Below the pieces are notes generated by a model that was not told where the DNA came from, did not search any database, and was given only the letters and a program-made list of their open reading frames with translations. Source: an uncultured Chloroflexia bacterium (GTDB lineage: Bacteria > Chloroflexota > Chloroflexia > Thermomicrobiales > UBA6265). Taken from it: a stretch of DNA of 64,000 bases. The first letter of the stretch is position 1. Every line of letters begins with the position of its first letter. The stretch covers positions 43,855 to 107,854 of the forward strand of contig CAVXMK010000008.1 of assembly GCA_963762985.1 (NCBI GenBank), in the 5' to 3' direction. Positions 2,787 through 53,547 of the stretch are shown in pieces. A program made the position numbers and the translations under genes.

Positions 2787-2916
2787 CCCCTCATCCCCAG
2801 CCCTTCTCCCCGTGCGCGGGGAGAAGGGAGCGCTTCCCGGAGCGGGTTTCGCGACAACGAGCCCCTCGCCCTGCGCACAGGGCCGGGTGCCCTCAGGGCG
2901 GCGGTTGGGGTGAGGG
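2787..2916. repeat. Inverted doublet of the CCCTCA(C/T)CCC...hairpin repeat (REPIN-like)
   Basis: 2787-2828 CCCCTCATCCCCAG plus a perfect 12-bp stem CCCTTCTCCCCG/CGGGGAGAAGGG; 2862-2916 is an opposite-orientation copy ending GGTTGGGGTGAGGG. Confidence 0.75.
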
Positions 2917-7126: not shown

Positions 7127-7261
7127 TCTGAACTCAAGGCGTCCTCTTAAGCGAAACTCGGAAGCCGACCGTCGTCCCAGCGAGACCTGCCCTCGCCTCC
7201 CCAGATCTTCAACACCTTCAACATCTTCCGACAACCGCGCCAGAATCTTGGTCGCCAAAAG

Positions 7262-7317
7262 CCCCTCGCCCCGCGCACGGGGCCGGGTACCTTCTGGGCG
7301 ACGGTTGGAGTGAGGGG
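7262..7317. repeat. Solo copy of the hairpin repeat
   Basis: CCCCTCGCCCCGCGCACGGGGCCGGGT...GGTTGGAGTGAGGGG closely matches 2862-2916. Confidence 0.7.
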
Positions 7318-44086: not shown

Positions 44087-44126
44087 CCCTCACCCCAACT
44101 TCGCTCCCTGCGCGCCACGAGAGGGG
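44087..44126. repeat. Degenerate solo copy of the hairpin repeat
   Basis: CCCTCACCCCAACTTCGCTCCC...GAGAGGGG. Confidence 0.55.
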
Positions 44127-44188
44127 CTTTCGCTCGCGTCCGACTTCCGACTTTCGACTTTCGACTTCAGTCTGCGGCTGGCCACGGG

Positions 44189-46248: not shown

Positions 46249-46288
46249 CCCCTCTCCCATCGCAGTGGGAGAGGGGTTGGGGTGAGGG
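46249..46288. repeat. Solo copy of the hairpin repeat downstream of recA
   Basis: CCCCTCTCCCA tcgcag TGGGAGAGGGG TTGGGGTGAGGG. Confidence 0.8.
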
Positions 46289-47722: not shown

Positions 47723-48836
47723 ATGGCGCGCATGACGATCCTCGGCGCCGGGGACATGGGAACCGCCCTCCTGACGCCACTTCATGCCGTTGGCCACGAG
47801 CTGCGCCTCTGGGGATCCGAGCGCGATGCGGCCATCCTGGCGGTGTCTCGATCGTGGAGACCCACATCCCGAGACTCGGCTCGCCGGTGCCGGCCGGGGT
47901 GGAACTCTATTCAGACGCGGAAGCCGCGGCGGCACTCGACGGCACCGGACATCGTGGTGGTTGCCATTACCTCGAATGCCATCCGCCCTGTCCTCGGCTC
48001 GCCTCGCTGCCGAGCTCGATGCGCCACGCGCCATCGTCGTCGTCGGCAAGGGGTTCGATTCCGGTCCTCGCGGCGACGAGATCCTGCTCCTGCCACACGT
48101 CATCGCCGAGTTCAATTCGGCGCCGGTCGTCGCCGTCGGCGGACCAGCAATCGCCAAAGAGATCGCGCTCGGGACCCCAACGGCGGCCGTCTTTGCCAGC
48201 ACCAACCCGGATGCGCTCGCCTTGACCCAGCAGGCATTCAGCACGCCCAACTTCTTCGTCGAGACGACCGATGATGTCGTCGGCCTCGAAGTGGCCGCGG
48301 CCATGAAGAACGCCTACGGGGTGGCCATCGGCATCGCCGACGGTATTGAGAAGCGGACCGGTCTGCCCCACGCGAACCTGCGCGCCGCGCTCTTCCCGCT
48401 GGCGGTGGCGGAGATGGGGTTGCTGGCGGAGCTGCTCGGCGGTCGGCGGGAAACTGTGGCCGGTCTCGCCGGGGCCGGTGATCTGCAAGTGACGGTCACG
48501 TCGGGTCGGAACCGGCTGCTGGGCGAGCGGGTCGGGATGGGGATGAGTGGGGCGGAGGCGTTTCGGGAGCTGACCGCGGCAGGGACAACGACGGAGGGGT
48601 ATTTGGCGACAGAATTTGGGTATCGCCTCGCCACACGCGCGGGGGCGGGAACGGAACCGGCCGACCGCCGGTTTCCCTTGCTCGATGCGCTGTATCGGAT
48701 CCTCTATGGAGATGCCCAGCCTGTTGAGGCGTTATGGGATGCCATCATCAAGGTGCACTCGACGAGCCGCCCTCACCCCCAACCCCGTCTCCCGGCTCGA
48801 CGGGAGAGGGAGTCTTCTCGGCGCATTGGAAAGTGA
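47723..48836 (+). CDS. NAD(P)H-dependent glycerol-3-phosphate dehydrogenase-like protein, frameshifted
   Basis: ILGAGDMGTA, GKGF, GGPAIAKE, DVVGLE..AAMKN, GLAGAGDLQVT..SGRN, TEG. Confidence 0.8.
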
Positions 48837-49350
48837 ACATCCGGACTCGGAATGACACGAGGCAAATGTTGGGAGGCAGCTTGAATGAGTCCTGGCAGAC
48901 CAAGAGGGCATTCGCACAATGTGCCCGCGGCGCGTGAATTACGGGCTCGCGAAACCGACGCCGAGGATCTTCTGTGGAAATCGCTACGCGGGCGCCGTCT
49001 GGGAGGCTTGAAGTTCCGGCGAGCATCCCATCGGCCCGTTCGTCGTCGACTTCTGCTGCGTCGAACGGCGCCTTGCGATTGAGCTTGACGGCGAAGTGCA
49101 TGACGAGCAGCAGGAGCACGATGCCGAGCGCGAGGCACTGCTGGTTTCCGCCGGGTATCGGGTAGTTCGTTTCACAAACGAAGCCGTTCAAAAGCAGTTA
49201 TCAACGGTATTGGCATCGATTCAAGCCGCGGCGCGAGAGGAACCAACGTCACGACCACCTGCGCCCGGTCGGCGCCCAGGATGGAGCTAACGTTCGTCGG
49301 TGGATAGCCCCCTCTCCCGGCTCGACGGGAGAGGGGGTTGGGGGTGAGGG
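48770..49350. mobile_element. Candidate repeat-flanked endonuclease element
   Basis: Inverted hairpin repeats of about 41 bp at 48770-48810 and 49308-49350 bracket a DUF559 gene. Confidence 0.5.
48885..49290 (+). CDS. DUF559 (Vsr-like) endonuclease domain protein (frameshift near 49022)
   Basis: ARELR..TDAE..LW..LR.RRLGGLKFRR / HPIGPFVVDF...LAIELDG.VH...D..R...L...GYRVVRF.N. Confidence 0.88.
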
Positions 49351-49377
49351 CCTACGCGAGCAACATCCCGGATCTCC

Positions 49378-50614
49378 CTACCCCTCCATCCGATCCTTCT
49401 CCGGCGTCACCACCCCCCGCTGCCACTCCGGGATCCCCGACCACGGCTGCAGCGGCAGCTCCGGCGCGTGCCCCAGCACCTCGCCGTCGATCATCGTCAG
49501 CGAATTGATCAGCCGCTGGTTACCCCGTCGCGGGCTCATGCGTACGTCGCGGAAGACATACTCCCCTTCCTCTAGCCGGAAGATGGCCACGTCCGCCACG
49601 CTTCCTGGCTTCAACGTTCCCAAATCCGGGCGCCGCATCGCCGCGGCCGGGCGGGACGTGGCGCGCTCGATCACCTCAGGCAGGGTCAGTCCCAGGTTGA
49701 GGAATTTCGAGAGGGTCGTCGGCAGGTCGAACATCGGCCCCTGGATGGCCATTTGATGGATGTCGGAGGAGATGACATCTGGCTTCACCCCGGCTTTCAG
49801 CATCGCCTCGGCGGTGTCGTAGGAGAACGACCCGGTGCCGTGGCCGATGTCGAGGATGAGGCCCTGCTCCCGTAGCGCCATGATCGCGGGGTTCGGCACG
49901 CCAGCGTCGTCAACGATTTTCATGTCGCCGCCGGTGAAGCAGTGGGTGAGGATGTCGCCCGGCCGCAGCAGCGGCGCGACCTCGTCGATCGTCGGCGGAC
50001 CGTACCCGATGTGCGTCATCAACGGCAGCCCCACCCGATCGGCCAGCTCACGCGCCAGCTCCAGAGGCACGGATGCCTACGCCGCGCGTCGTGTTCTGGT
50101 CGATGCGCGCCTTGATGCCCAGGATGAGGTCGCGGTTGGCGTTGACGATCGTCTCCGCCAGGTCGAGGTCGCAGTAGTCGAGGTTGGCGAACTCCCAGGT
50201 CGGCGCGATCAACCCGATCGAGGAGGCGTTGAGCAAGGCGAAGATGCGCGATTTACTCGGCTCGATCAGAAATCGCCGGAACGCCGGCCACGAGTACGAG
50301 CCCGACGAGCCGACATCGAGCCACGTCGTCACTCCGGTGCGCGCCGCCACCGGATCGGCTTCGATCCCCCAGTAGGTCGCGCCCCAGTAGACGTGGGTAT
50401 GCAGATCGACCAGCCCGGGGGTGACGATACCCCCCGTGGCATCGATGACCTCGCGCGCGGACGAACGAGCCAGATTCGGCGCCACCTCCGCGATCCGGCC
50501 ATCCCGAATCGCCACGTCGAGCGCGCCCTGGAGACCCGCGCCTGGATCGACGACCTCGCCGCCCACGATCAGCGTGTCAAAGACCTTCGGTTCGCTTGCC
50601 GTTGTTGCCGACAC
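49378..50614 (-). CDS. Amidohydrolase/deacetylase (dihydroorotase-like) metallohydrolase (frameshift near 50070)
   Basis: PGLVDLHTH, GIKAR, MTHIG, DILTHC, DIGHG, ISSDIH. Confidence 0.88.
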
Positions 50615-50988
50615 GTCGCTCTTCCCCTTCATCCCGCTCATGATCCGTGTCGGGAATCGTATCAGCGCAGCCACCGGTCCTCACGCCTCTGCTTCCCAGC
50701 CCCCCGTGAATCAGGAGCGTGTGGGAGGGCCATAGGCGCATCAATGCGACCCGCACAGACGAACCGCAAGACTCAGGCTCCAGACCCCATGACAAGTCCC
50801 GTACTTGGTACGGGGGCCGCCATGCCGGATGCCACGTAGGATCGACGGTATCCGAGCGGGGCTTCGCGGCAGGTGGCGGCGATGAAGCAGCGATGTGCGC
50901 AGTGGGGCTGACCAAGCCTCCGCACCGAGAGGGCACCGAGGAAGCAGTCGCGAGCTGCCGTGCTCCGGCTCCACCGAGGAGGACAACT

Positions 50989-53084
50989 GTGGCAAGGCTG
51001 GTGATGCTTGCGTTGATCGTCGTGGCCAGTATCGTCGGAGCGACGCCAGACGGCGTTGCACAGCAGTCCGGGGTAGCCGCCGACATTCGCCAGGGAAATT
51101 GCGAGGAGATCGGCGATGTCGTCGCGCCGCTCGTCGAGGCCACGATCCCCGAGGGCGAGCCTCGCGGAAACGCGTAAGCGATGCCCGCCGCCACCTCCTT
51201 CACGACCATCCCCCTCCCGCTCGCGGCGTTGGTGGCGAGCGACCATGCGCTCGTCATTCCTTTTCCGGCCGGGGACGAACTGGTGGCCTGCGGCGAACTC
51301 GGGGGAGTGTTGACCGAGGCGGGGGCTCTGGTCGTCGGGATCAGGCCGCAGGGCGACGTGGGGATCTCGGGCATCGCTTTCCTGAGTCCAAGCGCCGACG
51401 GCGCGCAGACCAACGTCTCGCTCTTCATCTCCGGCGCAGGGCTGAACACGTTCTTTGCCGCCACCTTCCTCCCACCGACGGTCGCGGAAGAAGACGCCGC
51501 GCGCTTCGCCGCGGCCCTGGCTGCCCGGGACGGATCCTCAAGTCTGGCCGGACCGTTCGCGGGCCAATTCGTGCAGCGCGAAGGCCAGCGCGCCGTGAGG
51601 GGCGCTGGGATCGCGGCCGCGGACTTCTCGGCCACCGTCACATTCGTCAATCCAACCGAGCAGACCGATACGCCGTGGGACGTTGGCCTGGCATTCCATC
51701 AGAATCCAGAGCAATCCGCGGCCCGGGAGATCGTCGTCAGTTCGGATGGGGGATGGCTCTACAGCGATCCCTGGACCGGAACGCTCGGGGCGGGACCTGA
51801 GACCACCTTCGACGCCACGCCAGGAGCGACGAATACCCTCGACCTGGTGGTGGAGGGCGCCACAGCGCTGTTCGGCGTCAACGGGGAGTTGGCCGCCACG
51901 TTCGACCTGTCGCCCGCGGCCACTTCGGACATCTTCGTGACGACCGACTATCTCTCGGAAAACATCGTGGACGGCCGCGTCATCACCTACACCGACTTCC
52001 AGATCTGGGATCTGGCAGGGACCGGATCGCCGGCAGAGACGCCCGCGTCGGGGGTCGCCGCGGACGACGCCGCGCGGTTCGCCGCCGCCCTGGCGGCCCG
52101 GGACCGCGCATCCCACCTCGCCGGACCATTCGGCGGCACGTTCTCGCAATCGATGGCCGGACTTGCCGCGGCCCCGGCCGGGATCACCACCGAGGACTTC
52201 TCGGCGACCCTCACCTTCGTCAACCCGAGCGAGCAATCCGGAGCGCCGTGGGACTACGGGTTCGCCTTCCATCAGGTCCTCGAGCCGTACAGCGTGCAGG
52301 AGGTCTACGTCGATTCGAGCGGGGTCTGGTTCTACGCCGACTTCCCCAATGGCGTGCGGCAGTCGGGCCTCGTGCCCACCTTCGACGCCGCGCCAGGGGC
52401 GACCAACACCCTCGACCTCATCGTCCAGGGCACGACGGCGCTGTTCGGTGTCAACGGCGAGTTCGTGGCCACTATCGACCTGACGCCGCCGATCGCTGCG
52501 GACGTCATGGCGGCGACCGACTTCGCCTCGCAGATCATCGTGGAGGGCCGGCAGATCATCTACAGCACCTTCGAAGTCTGGGAAGCGCCGACGCCCGCTG
52601 CGCTGGCCGCGTCCCCGCCGCCGGCTTCCACCCTAGACGATGCAACGCGGTTTGCGGACGCTTTGGCCACTCGGGATGCCATGCGGGAATTCGGGAGTGG
52701 ACCGTTCACGGACACGCTCGTGCAACAGCAGGCATCCCCGCCTCCAGGATCGCGGAGATCGACTTCGAGGATCTGTCAGCGACCGCCGCCTTCACGAACC
52801 CGGCGGAGTCGAGTGGAGTGCCTTGGGACTACGGGTTCGCCTTCCACCCGATCGACAACGCGGTCCAGGTCGTCTCTGTCGACTCTGCAGGGTTCTGGCA
52901 CTTCAACGGCACGCGAGCAGGATGGGTCGCCGCATTCGACGACACCCCCGGGGCGACGAACACCCTCGACCTCATCATCGAAGGGGACCCGACGAGCTTC
53001 CGCATCGGGGTTGTCACCGGCTTGGACCCGGAAGTCCGGATCGAGGGCCGGGAGATCGCCTTCACCCTCCAGGTCTGGTATTAG
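50989..53084 (+). CDS. Secreted protein with three internal repeats of about 190 aa; in-frame TAA at 51175 and frameshift near 52745
   Basis: Signal peptide; DDAARFAAALAARD...GPF...DFSAT.TF.NP...PWD.G.AFH...TPGATNTLDL three times. Confidence 0.6.
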
Positions 53085-53547
53085 GGCTGGAACAGGGTAG
53101 CTGGTGGGGCACGGCGAAATTTGGGAACTTGGGGAACTTCGGGAACTTCTCTGGGATCGGGGCGCGGGACCGACACCGCTTCCTGGCACAGGATCGAGTG
53201 AGCCGACTGCCGCGCTCATGGTCGTCTCGGCGTCATCACTGTCGTTCTTGCGCTGAACGCGCGCTTCTCTGATCGCTGGAGGTTGCTCATGTCCACACCG
53301 TCTGAATCGCCAGGACTGCTCGATCAATTCCGACCGCATGTCTTGCCCGCCAAGGACACCGCGCATACGCGTGCTCAGCTCCTCGTCCTGGCCTTCCGCC
53401 CATGGTAGCGGCCGGGGCGCAGGCGTGCCCTGGGCGGCGCCCGCCCTCAGAACCCTGTTGCCGCGGGCGCCACGAGCCCGCCCCGAGCATGCGGCGTCAG
53501 GCTGGGGTTCCATGAACTTGATCGGCGCGATGTTTGGAGTTGGAGCG

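Follow-up and report, generated by a model that had tools for sequence, protein, structure and literature searches.

A DUF559 nuclease gene framed by inverted BoxC/triplex-motif repeats, and the association of the two across bacterial phyla

The window analysed here is a 64,000-nucleotide stretch from an uncultured Chloroflexia bacterium (GenBank assembly GCA_963762985.1, contig CAVXMK010000008.1, positions 43,855 to 107,854 of the forward strand). At positions 48769–49351 it carries a small nuclease gene of the DUF559 family, related to Escherichia coli ycjD, set between two inverted copies of a hairpin repeat that is dispersed through the genome and that, by its sequence, is the BoxC element, also called the PIT element or intrastrand triplex motif (TM). 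The architecture of the unit, its insertion and empty-site polymorphism among relatives, the association of such genes with such repeats across phyla, and a match between repeat type and nuclease type are direct observations. Because the pairing recurs in many phyla, the DUF559 nuclease is a candidate, open to testing, for the enzyme behind the spread of BoxC/TM repeats. Both parts are already known, and REP/RAYT already exemplifies this kind of system, in which a repeat family has a cognate nuclease gene in single copy; a paper linking BoxC/TM to DUF559 was not found by full-text literature searches, whose coverage leaves out subscription journals and supplements. Below, G000 denotes the source genome, other G numbers denote compared genomes, and L numbers denote loci.

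Architecture of the unit and its repeats

The two repeats form inverted arms (48769–48810 and 49310–49351; 42 nt, 88% complementary, with a spacing of 499 nt according to a repeat finder), and the hairpin with the GCTCGA loop is also a direct repeat (31 nt, 94%; 48783–48813 and 49308–49338), which bears out a first-pass annotation, made from the letters alone, of inverted flanks with the loop in direct orientation. Folded as single-stranded DNA (ssDNA), the right arm reaches −16.6 kcal/mol, equalled by 0 of 200 shuffles, and the left arm, with its stem mismatch, reaches −9.3 kcal/mol, no better than shuffles (64 of 200). The tail motif GGTTGGGGGTGAGGG, allowing up to two mismatches, has four matches in the window, against a shuffle mean of 0.19; four were reached in 0 of 100 shuffles. 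Loose ends of metagenome contigs at 48769 and 48810 mark off the unit on the left, and a depth spike and loose ends occur at 49308 and 49344–49352 on the right. The neighbours of the unit are a gpsA-like gene (47784–48836) and an amidohydrolase gene on the minus strand (49378–50674). No known RNA family was matched at E up to 1 (48400–49700), consensus scans of 48700–49420 returned no promoter and no terminator, and no terminator-like T-run was found at the unit. Of the marks of transposons and miniature inverted-repeat transposable elements, inverted ends are present and a known transposase fold is not.

The repeat has the make-up of a TM: a homopyrimidine/homopurine GC hairpin (CCCTCTCCC / GGGAGAGGG) followed, after a short linker of 2–5 nt, by a G-rich mirror block (GGGTGAGGG), in many dispersed, mostly intergenic copies whose number is far above chance. 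Like BoxC it is intergenic and multi-copy and also occurs in inverted pairs, and the E. coli copy beside ycjD reads ...CCCCTCTGGGGAGAGGGTTAGGGTGAGGGG; the likeness to enterobacterial BoxC, which the first-pass annotation had noted, proved correct against the motif of Holder et al. 2015 (PMC4666352). According to passages of that paper, which cites Bachellier et al. 1999 and Hoyne et al. 2000, BoxC was later named PIT element or TM, TMs occur in over 260 genomes with 23 copies in E. coli K-12, and the hairpin and G-rich block fold into an intrastrand triplex in vitro, as shown for the E. coli motif. The family described here differs in that its loops and linkers are lineage-specific, its copies in G000 number about 280–300, and G000 has a variant with a 25-nt insert. 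No associated gene is named in the BoxC/PIT/TM literature; passages of Holder et al. 2015, the main survey of these repeats, state that mobility functions were never found near TMs, and the words 'endonuclease' and 'DUF' are absent from that paper (PMC4666352).

In G000 each copy has the hairpin CCCTCTCCC-loop-GGGAGAGGG and, behind it, GTT(G)GGGGTGAGGG. A search for CCCTCTCCC-N4-12-GGGAGAGGG, with at most one substitution per arm, finds 302 hairpins (276 with one tail, 2 with two tails, 24 with none). A joint pattern yields 279 full copies, 52 of which share one identical 39-mer, and exact copies number 196 genome-wide against 2 for a reversed-pattern control. The loop classes are ATCGCAAT/ATTGCGAT (118), TGCGCACA (44), CGCGCACG (21) and GGCTCGAC (20), the last being that of both arms of the unit. 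Loops occur in both orientations relative to the tail (52 and 23 exact copies); since both are common, the direct orientation in the unit is an ordinary variant and nothing special. In form B, of which there are 73 in the genome, a conserved 25-nt insert (GGGCCGGGTGCCCTCTGGGCGGCGG) takes the place of the 3′ arm of the hairpin before the tail. The additional window copies listed by the first-pass annotation (a doublet at about 2787–2916 and solo copies at 7262, 44087 and 46249) are all real and include form B and degenerate members.

Thirty neighbouring pairs in G000 lie less than 200 nt apart, 24 with tails outward, 6 with one member lacking a recognisable tail, and none inward or tandem; all 24 close pairs with two recognisable tails thus point outward, as does the gene unit. 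At 300–700 nt, only two other tails-outward pairs exist (spacings of 387 and 677 nt), which frame what, read by eye, are a small ferredoxin-like gene and a kinase-like fragment, with no DNA similarity to the DUF559 unit. Repeats are found downstream of many unrelated genes. The copy downstream of recA is present in G000, has another loop in G006 and is absent in G001, G005, G009 and G013; it is placed between the recA stop codon and a conserved terminator-like hairpin. Behind some TMs stand two or three further G-rich tails in tandem, spaced about 22 nt apart (C2:95327–95371, C3:147630–147654, C5:346466–346488 and others), and a separate palindrome, GGGCACGGCATGCCGTGCCC, which may be another dispersed repeat, adjoins TMs at C15:7885–7907 and C15:336778–336800.

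DUF559 is a very common domain of unknown function. The gene in the window is split over two frames, the open reading frame (ORF) 48885–49082 and the frame of 49018–49290, whose matches to PF04480 score 32.6 and 80.4 bits (curated cut-off 20.6). It is the sole match to this family in the 6.74-Mb, 27-contig assembly; the first-pass annotation had called it the only nuclease of its type in the window. The Vsr-like catalytic residues D42, E53, D55 and H59, invariant in 24 DUF559 sequences, are present in the second frame. The family profile matches PDB entry 3HRL (E 1e-35) and, weakly, 3R3P, the catalytic domain of I-Bth0305I (E 5e-5 over 71 profile positions), with the motif E.DG..H here and not EDxHD; YcjD of E. 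coli K-12 shares 39% identity with the G006 orthologue (E 8e-27). DUF559 is grouped with Vsr in the PD-(D/E)XK superfamily, according to parts of PMC3424549 and PMC1189080.

The orthologue in G006 aligns across the frame break and its own frame is intact. Two metagenome runs from different studies, X2 and X9, have near-identical pieces (one contig each, depth 2–2.4) with GC behind 49021, which restores the frame RRQHP. Of the sequencing runs that share words with the region, none contains more than 0.20 of them, none is listed as RNA, and all consist of contigs. Alignment with the G006 orthologues shows five +1 indels and one −1 in gpsA (window 47844–48257) and one +1 in the amidohydrolase gene (50065), which may be either assembly indel errors or signs of decaying genes; recA differs from that of G006 by in-frame indels only. 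An assembly error is plausible at 49021 because the neighbouring genes carry 1-nt indels, and the 2-nt gap appears as likely to be such an error as a real mutation, in which case the local copy would be dead.

The site itself was compared in genomes of the same genus, with the 3′ end of gpsA as the probe. In G008, G013 and G010, gpsA and the amidohydrolase gene are adjacent, separated by a short spacer with neither repeat nor DUF559, so the empty sites between these two genes that the first-pass annotation had suggested looking for do occur. The closest relative, G006 (gpsA 87% identical), has the unit at the same site with the whole of 48769–49351 inverted, and G011, an unpublished genome, has other DNA there. 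Compared with these empty sites, the unit represents an insertion, its gene and both repeats being gained or lost as one. Any target duplication is unreadable because the empty sites are only 71–75% identical.

Association of DUF559 genes with the repeats across genomes

The related set comprised 41 genomes, 22 of which contain PF04480 in 1–4 copies each. A profile of 24 proteins added 80 loci from named genomes of many phyla, the best 80 of 599 candidates. In a count of 95 loci from the relatives and the many-phyla loci together, made with exact hairpin patterns within 300 nt of the ORF, a TM-class hairpin was found at 73 (on both sides at 33, on one side at 40), against 4 of 175 control windows 700–1000 nt away. 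This is the enrichment near DUF559 genes that the first-pass annotation had proposed as a check. The alignment score of the flanks as inverted repeats has a median of 35 (n = 74), against a median of 18.5 and a maximum of 36 for outer flanks 600–900 nt away (n = 72); the control maximum is exceeded at 33 of 74 loci and at none of the 72 controls, and the control 95th percentile at 50 of 74. The outer flanks replaced a swapped-flank control, which was dropped (maximum 108) because different organisms share the same repeat and the swapped flanks therefore scored high. Chance is ruled out as an explanation by the tail shuffles, the reversed-pattern control and the flank counts.

The pairing recurs in Chloroflexota, Proteobacteria, Deinococcota and Cyanobacteria, and the inverted arms across phyla mostly contain the same CCCTCTCCC...GGGAGAGGG...GGGTGAGGG motif. 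When the flanks of 27 loci from the related genomes were read together with those of the window, most showed a C-rich tail and hairpin upstream and a hairpin and G-rich tail downstream; loci from other genera have different hairpins in the same layout. The exceptions are L004, with none, L012, with the upstream copy only, L009 and L028, which are partial, L019, masked downstream, and L022, cut by a contig end. Among cultured isolates, 38 plasmid records have a match, and all four replicons examined have TM-type inverted flanks: pSymB of S. meliloti Ak57 (114-nt arms), pDEIPR03 of D. proteolyticus (56-nt arms), p3 of A. lipoferum 4B and pAQ6 of Picosynechococcus PCC 7002. Neither a lack of association across genomes nor a gene fixed without flanking repeats in relatives, outcomes that the first-pass annotation had named as contrary to its proposal, was encountered.

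The orientation of gene-less doublets was compared with that of the gene unit in each lineage. In G041, the Dehalococcoidia chromosome of L092, inverted copies alternate in arrays, in which 50 junctions are tails-in and 42 tails-out; there are none in G042 and G044, and exact patterns find few in G000. The arrays of G041 are regular, with a period of about 102 nt (for example C1:534088–534478), and the chromosome has 170 hairpins in 2.4 Mb.

In E. coli K-12 ycjD runs at its 3′ end into a degenerate hairpin that it overlaps, and about 170 nt downstream there is a canonical BoxC. Between ycjD and BoxC stands a partial duplicate of the last ~40 nt of the gene (L113; NC_000913.3 1351039–1351407), as if it were the remnant of a second copy or of slipped repair. 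According to part of PMC12817139, ycjD occupies the sapF–fabI site in E. coli phylogroups that lack the eefRABCD operon.

The type of repeat follows the type of nuclease. All 16 genomes of the genus have the canonical hairpin, in 33–196 copies where a small DUF559 gene is found and 6–273 where it is not. Outside the genus, DUF559 occurs in 8 of 10 genomes with at least 6 canonical hairpins and in 3 of 15 with at most 2, the three genes in the latter being framed by other repeat types. A CCCCCCA..TTGGGGGG hairpin is confined to G021 (44 copies), G033 (17) and G037 (146), exactly the genomes with a DUF559 gene so flanked, with 0 in the other 38, and only the genomes with the matching gene, G025 (48), G033 (44) and G037 (21), are rich in CCCCTCCC..GGGAGGGGCCGG, the others having 0–3; both patterns were derived from those same loci, and counts of 17–146 far exceed the one or two flanking copies. 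Within the genus, copies with the GGCTCGAC loop occur in 7 of 7 genomes with the CVERR/CAERR protein clade, which includes the gene of the window (2–49 copies), and in 2 of 9 others (1–2 copies). Copies with the ATYGCRAT loop number 19 in G006 and 14 in G004, both of which have a gene framed by that loop. Repeat families thus co-occur with the matching type of DUF559, in agreement with the co-occurrence that the first-pass annotation had proposed to examine. Unpublished genomes enter through G021 (in the CCCCCCA..TTGGGGGG comparison) and the rows for G011 (canonical hairpin counts, gpsA site and recA site) and G036 (counts of canonical hairpins and of CCCCTCCC..GGGAGGGGCCGG), and the conclusions stand without them.

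Other candidates in G000 were also placed relative to the repeats. Its sole RAYT gene (PF01797; C15:84434–84757) is framed by a different inverted repeat, GTGGCCCTAAAGGA... (C15:84260–84851), which G000 has 25 times; the two make up another pair of repeat and nuclease, distinct from the TM–DUF559 one, and the different flanks rule out the RAYT as partner of the TM repeat. An insertion-sequence-like (IS-like) element of about 1.23 kb with a 371-aa ORF, which matches no Pfam family at E up to 0.01, is present in seven copies of 99.8–100% identity. One of its ends lies directly against a TM hairpin in at least five copies, four of them with the GGCTCGAC loop. This placement suggests that the element inserts into the repeat as a target, and it looks like a user of the repeats rather than their mover.

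A candidate repeat-and-nuclease partnership and its rivals

On balance it seems probable, if only somewhat so, that the TM-DUF559-TM unit represents a repeat family in its gene-bearing form, and that the gene-less copies of this family rely on the nuclease in the way that REPs rely on RAYT. The wider proposal, to which we would give a little less than an even chance, is that YcjD-like DUF559 nucleases are the missing partner enzymes of BoxC/PIT/TM repeats throughout bacteria: a second, independently evolved symbiosis of repeat and nuclease beside REPIN/RAYT, in which a Vsr-fold nuclease would read hairpin- or triplex-forming DNA, and stem and loop would set which nuclease serves which repeat population. 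The segment 48769–49351 would then be a compact selfish cassette, a YcjD-like DUF559 gene between inverted TMs, and the gene-less single and double copies would be its non-autonomous relatives. The nuclease may recognise its own repeat type, as a duplex or as a folded hairpin or triplex on ssDNA, and may nick or cut there; the break could be repaired by copying from another repeat-bearing site, and such repair would make the repeats uniform and spread them, on rare occasions together with the gene between them. The outcome would be functionally like that of RAYT for REP/REPIN, produced by an unrelated enzyme without covalent transposase chemistry. Recognition, cleavage and mobilisation are what we infer from the comparisons; the outward close pairs, the 52 identical 39-mers and the presence or absence of the recA copy among relatives are signs that the repeats are mobile.

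The likeness to REP/REPIN and RAYT lies in a single-copy nuclease gene that has its own dispersed palindromic repeat, inverted, on both sides, in gene-less copies that are single or inverted doublets, in distinct gene types with distinct repeat types, and in repeat populations also found without the gene. The differences are that the enzyme here is a PD-(D/E)XK, Vsr-like protein of about 120 aa (PF04480) whereas RAYT is a Y1 HUH transposase (TnpA-REP; PF01797), that the repeat lacks a GTAG/CGTC tag and carries a triplex-forming tail, and that the real RAYT of G000 has another repeat. We know of no transposition chemistry for the PD-(D/E)XK Vsr-like fold. That DUF559 plays the part of RAYT for this repeat was the central suggestion of the first-pass annotation; its comparative side held (enrichment, co-occurrence, empty sites and a separate repeat for the RAYT), and the role itself is offered here conditionally, with a homing explanation beside it.

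Several findings count against such a partnership. The ATYGCRAT loop is dominant in G000, with 110 copies and no matching gene there, and canonical repeats occur where no small DUF559 gene was found, in G003 (273), G011 (45), G002 (44), G001 (35), G010 (33), G034 (19), G007 (16), G031 (15) and G005 (6); G003 has only a weak PF04480 hit inside a long frame, and the assemblies of G001 and G031 have 10 contigs at 90% and 8 contigs at 99% completeness. No TM-class hairpin lies within 300 nt at 22 of the 95 DUF559 loci. The compared genomes are related to each other, so the counts of repeat type against nuclease type are not independent and do not amount to a statistical test. The protein tree has poor resolution, with 58 of its 92 inner branches open, and it groups the flank classes only moderately (37 changes, where shuffling gives a mean of 48.8). 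Tails point outward in the source genus and inward in many other lineages. The gene of the window does not have an uninterrupted reading frame, owing to the 2-nt gap at 49021/49022, and strand-transfer activity is not evident for a nuclease of about 120 aa. According to passages of PMC4666352, most TM sites keep their position across 56 E. coli strains, and mobility there is therefore low. The DUF559 protein VsrA of Caulobacter, to judge from part of PMC12907096, is functionally tied to cytosine methylation and a cytosine methyltransferase, not to repeats; it was the only functional study of a DUF559 protein found.

Some of these findings would also fit a DUF559 gene that is a homing-type parasite: TM repeats or doublets would be its landing sites and supply its homology arms, it would cut repeats that have no gene and enter them as a copy made during repair, and something else would move or keep the repeats. 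This is the rival that deserves most attention, though we consider it unlikely. It would account for the plentiful repeats of G003, G001 and G031, for the commonest loop class of G000 having no matching gene, and for the two orientations of the unit at one locus, which one would expect where the homology lies in symmetric inverted arms; the IS-like element, too, sits against TM hairpins, and the profile match to 3R3P is to the catalytic domain of a proven homing endonuclease. I-Bth0305I and related Vsr-like (EDxHD) homing endonucleases (parts of PMC3239194) resemble the unit in a small selfish nuclease gene and, weakly, in the sequence of the catalytic domain; they differ from it in that the gene here is intergenic between dispersed repeats and not in an intron, an intein or a defined homing site of a host gene. 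A parasite of this sort is hard to square with the three empty sites, which lack any repeat, unless a doublet arrived first in the ancestor of G000 and G006. Nor does a mere lodger predict whole repeat families confined to genomes with the matching nuclease type, and active homing among hundreds of targets might give many copies, whereas DUF559 types are single-copy per genome.

That the protein is instead an ordinary host enzyme, a solitary Vsr-like endonuclease of mismatch-repair or restriction type, and that the repeats only accumulate at small horizontally acquired genes or act as its terminators or insulators, is quite improbable. The Vsr-like fold, the link of VsrA to a methyltransferase and the TMs behind many unrelated genes agree with it, and it is opposed by the flank counts, by the tracking of nuclease type by repeat type, by the joint gain or loss of gene and both repeats, by the fact that just two other outward pairs at 300–700 nt frame genes in G000, and by the missing T-run. 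Least probable of all is that both are passengers, with another enzyme (the RAYT, the IS-like transposase or host recombination at non-B DNA) moving the TMs and DUF559 carried along in a composite element. TM loci are recombination-prone in E. coli, according to passages of PMC4666352, and the near-identical IS-like copies abut TMs; against this, the RAYT is flanked by a different repeat of its own, the other phyla that show the DUF559–TM pairing are not known to have the IS-like element, and one would not expect a passenger to belong to a single gene family throughout Chloroflexota, Proteobacteria, Deinococcota and Cyanobacteria.

Knowledge of BoxC/PIT/TM repeats goes back to the 1990s; they fold into a stable triplex in vitro, and the loci that they mark are unstable. 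If the proposed dependence of the repeats on the nuclease is true, they would gain a candidate enzyme and the DUF559 domain a candidate substrate, both being explained at once, and a second kind of long-lived partnership of repeat and nuclease would stand beside REPIN/RAYT. E. coli K-12, which has both ycjD and 23 copies of BoxC, would allow a direct test of the pairing. YcjD (PDB entry 3HRL; a DUF559 protein of unknown function) belongs to the same family and its gene is also beside BoxC; it differs in that its unit is degenerate, with a canonical repeat on one side only and the partial duplicate of ycjD's 3′ end.

Feature coordinates and a neighbouring reading frame

Table 1 Features of the unit, other TM copies in the window and copies of the IS-like element in G000
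Feature	Position	Strand	Remarks
Whole TM-DUF559-TM unit	48769..49351	+	583 bp
Left BoxC/TM repeat	48769..48810	-	C-rich tail CCCTCACCCCCAACC, then hairpin with loop GGCTCGAC (+ strand reading); one stem mismatch
DUF559 gene, 5′ part, ATG to frame break	48885..49021	+	PF04480 profile positions 6–38
Frame break	49021..49022	+	2 nt missing compared with the G006 orthologue and two metagenome contigs
DUF559 gene, 3′ part including stop codon	49022..49290	+	PF04480 profile positions 39–107; D...E.D...H residues (VVDF...IELDGEVH)
Right BoxC/TM repeat	49308..49351	+	perfect 13-bp-stem hairpin, loop GGCTCGAC, then G-rich tail GGTTGGGGGTGAGGG
TM, CCTTCTCCC stem variant	2788..2827	-	left half of tails-outward doublet
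TM form B	2861..2916	+	right half of doublet; 25-nt insert replaces 3′ arm before tail
Solo TM form B	7261..7317	+	
Degenerate TM	44087..44128	-	tail kept, hairpin decayed
Solo TM, canonical	46250..46288	+	downstream of recA
IS-like element	C8:678994		
IS-like element	C14:262739		
IS-like element	C15:2836		
IS-like element	C15:340964		
IS-like element	C17:67448		
IS-like element	C10:468181–469412		
IS-like element	C15:438224–439455		

Elsewhere in the window, a 639-aa ORF at 51181–53100 has about three internal repeats of ~160 aa, with the motifs ARFAAALAARD... and TNTLDL.V.G.TALFGVNGE.

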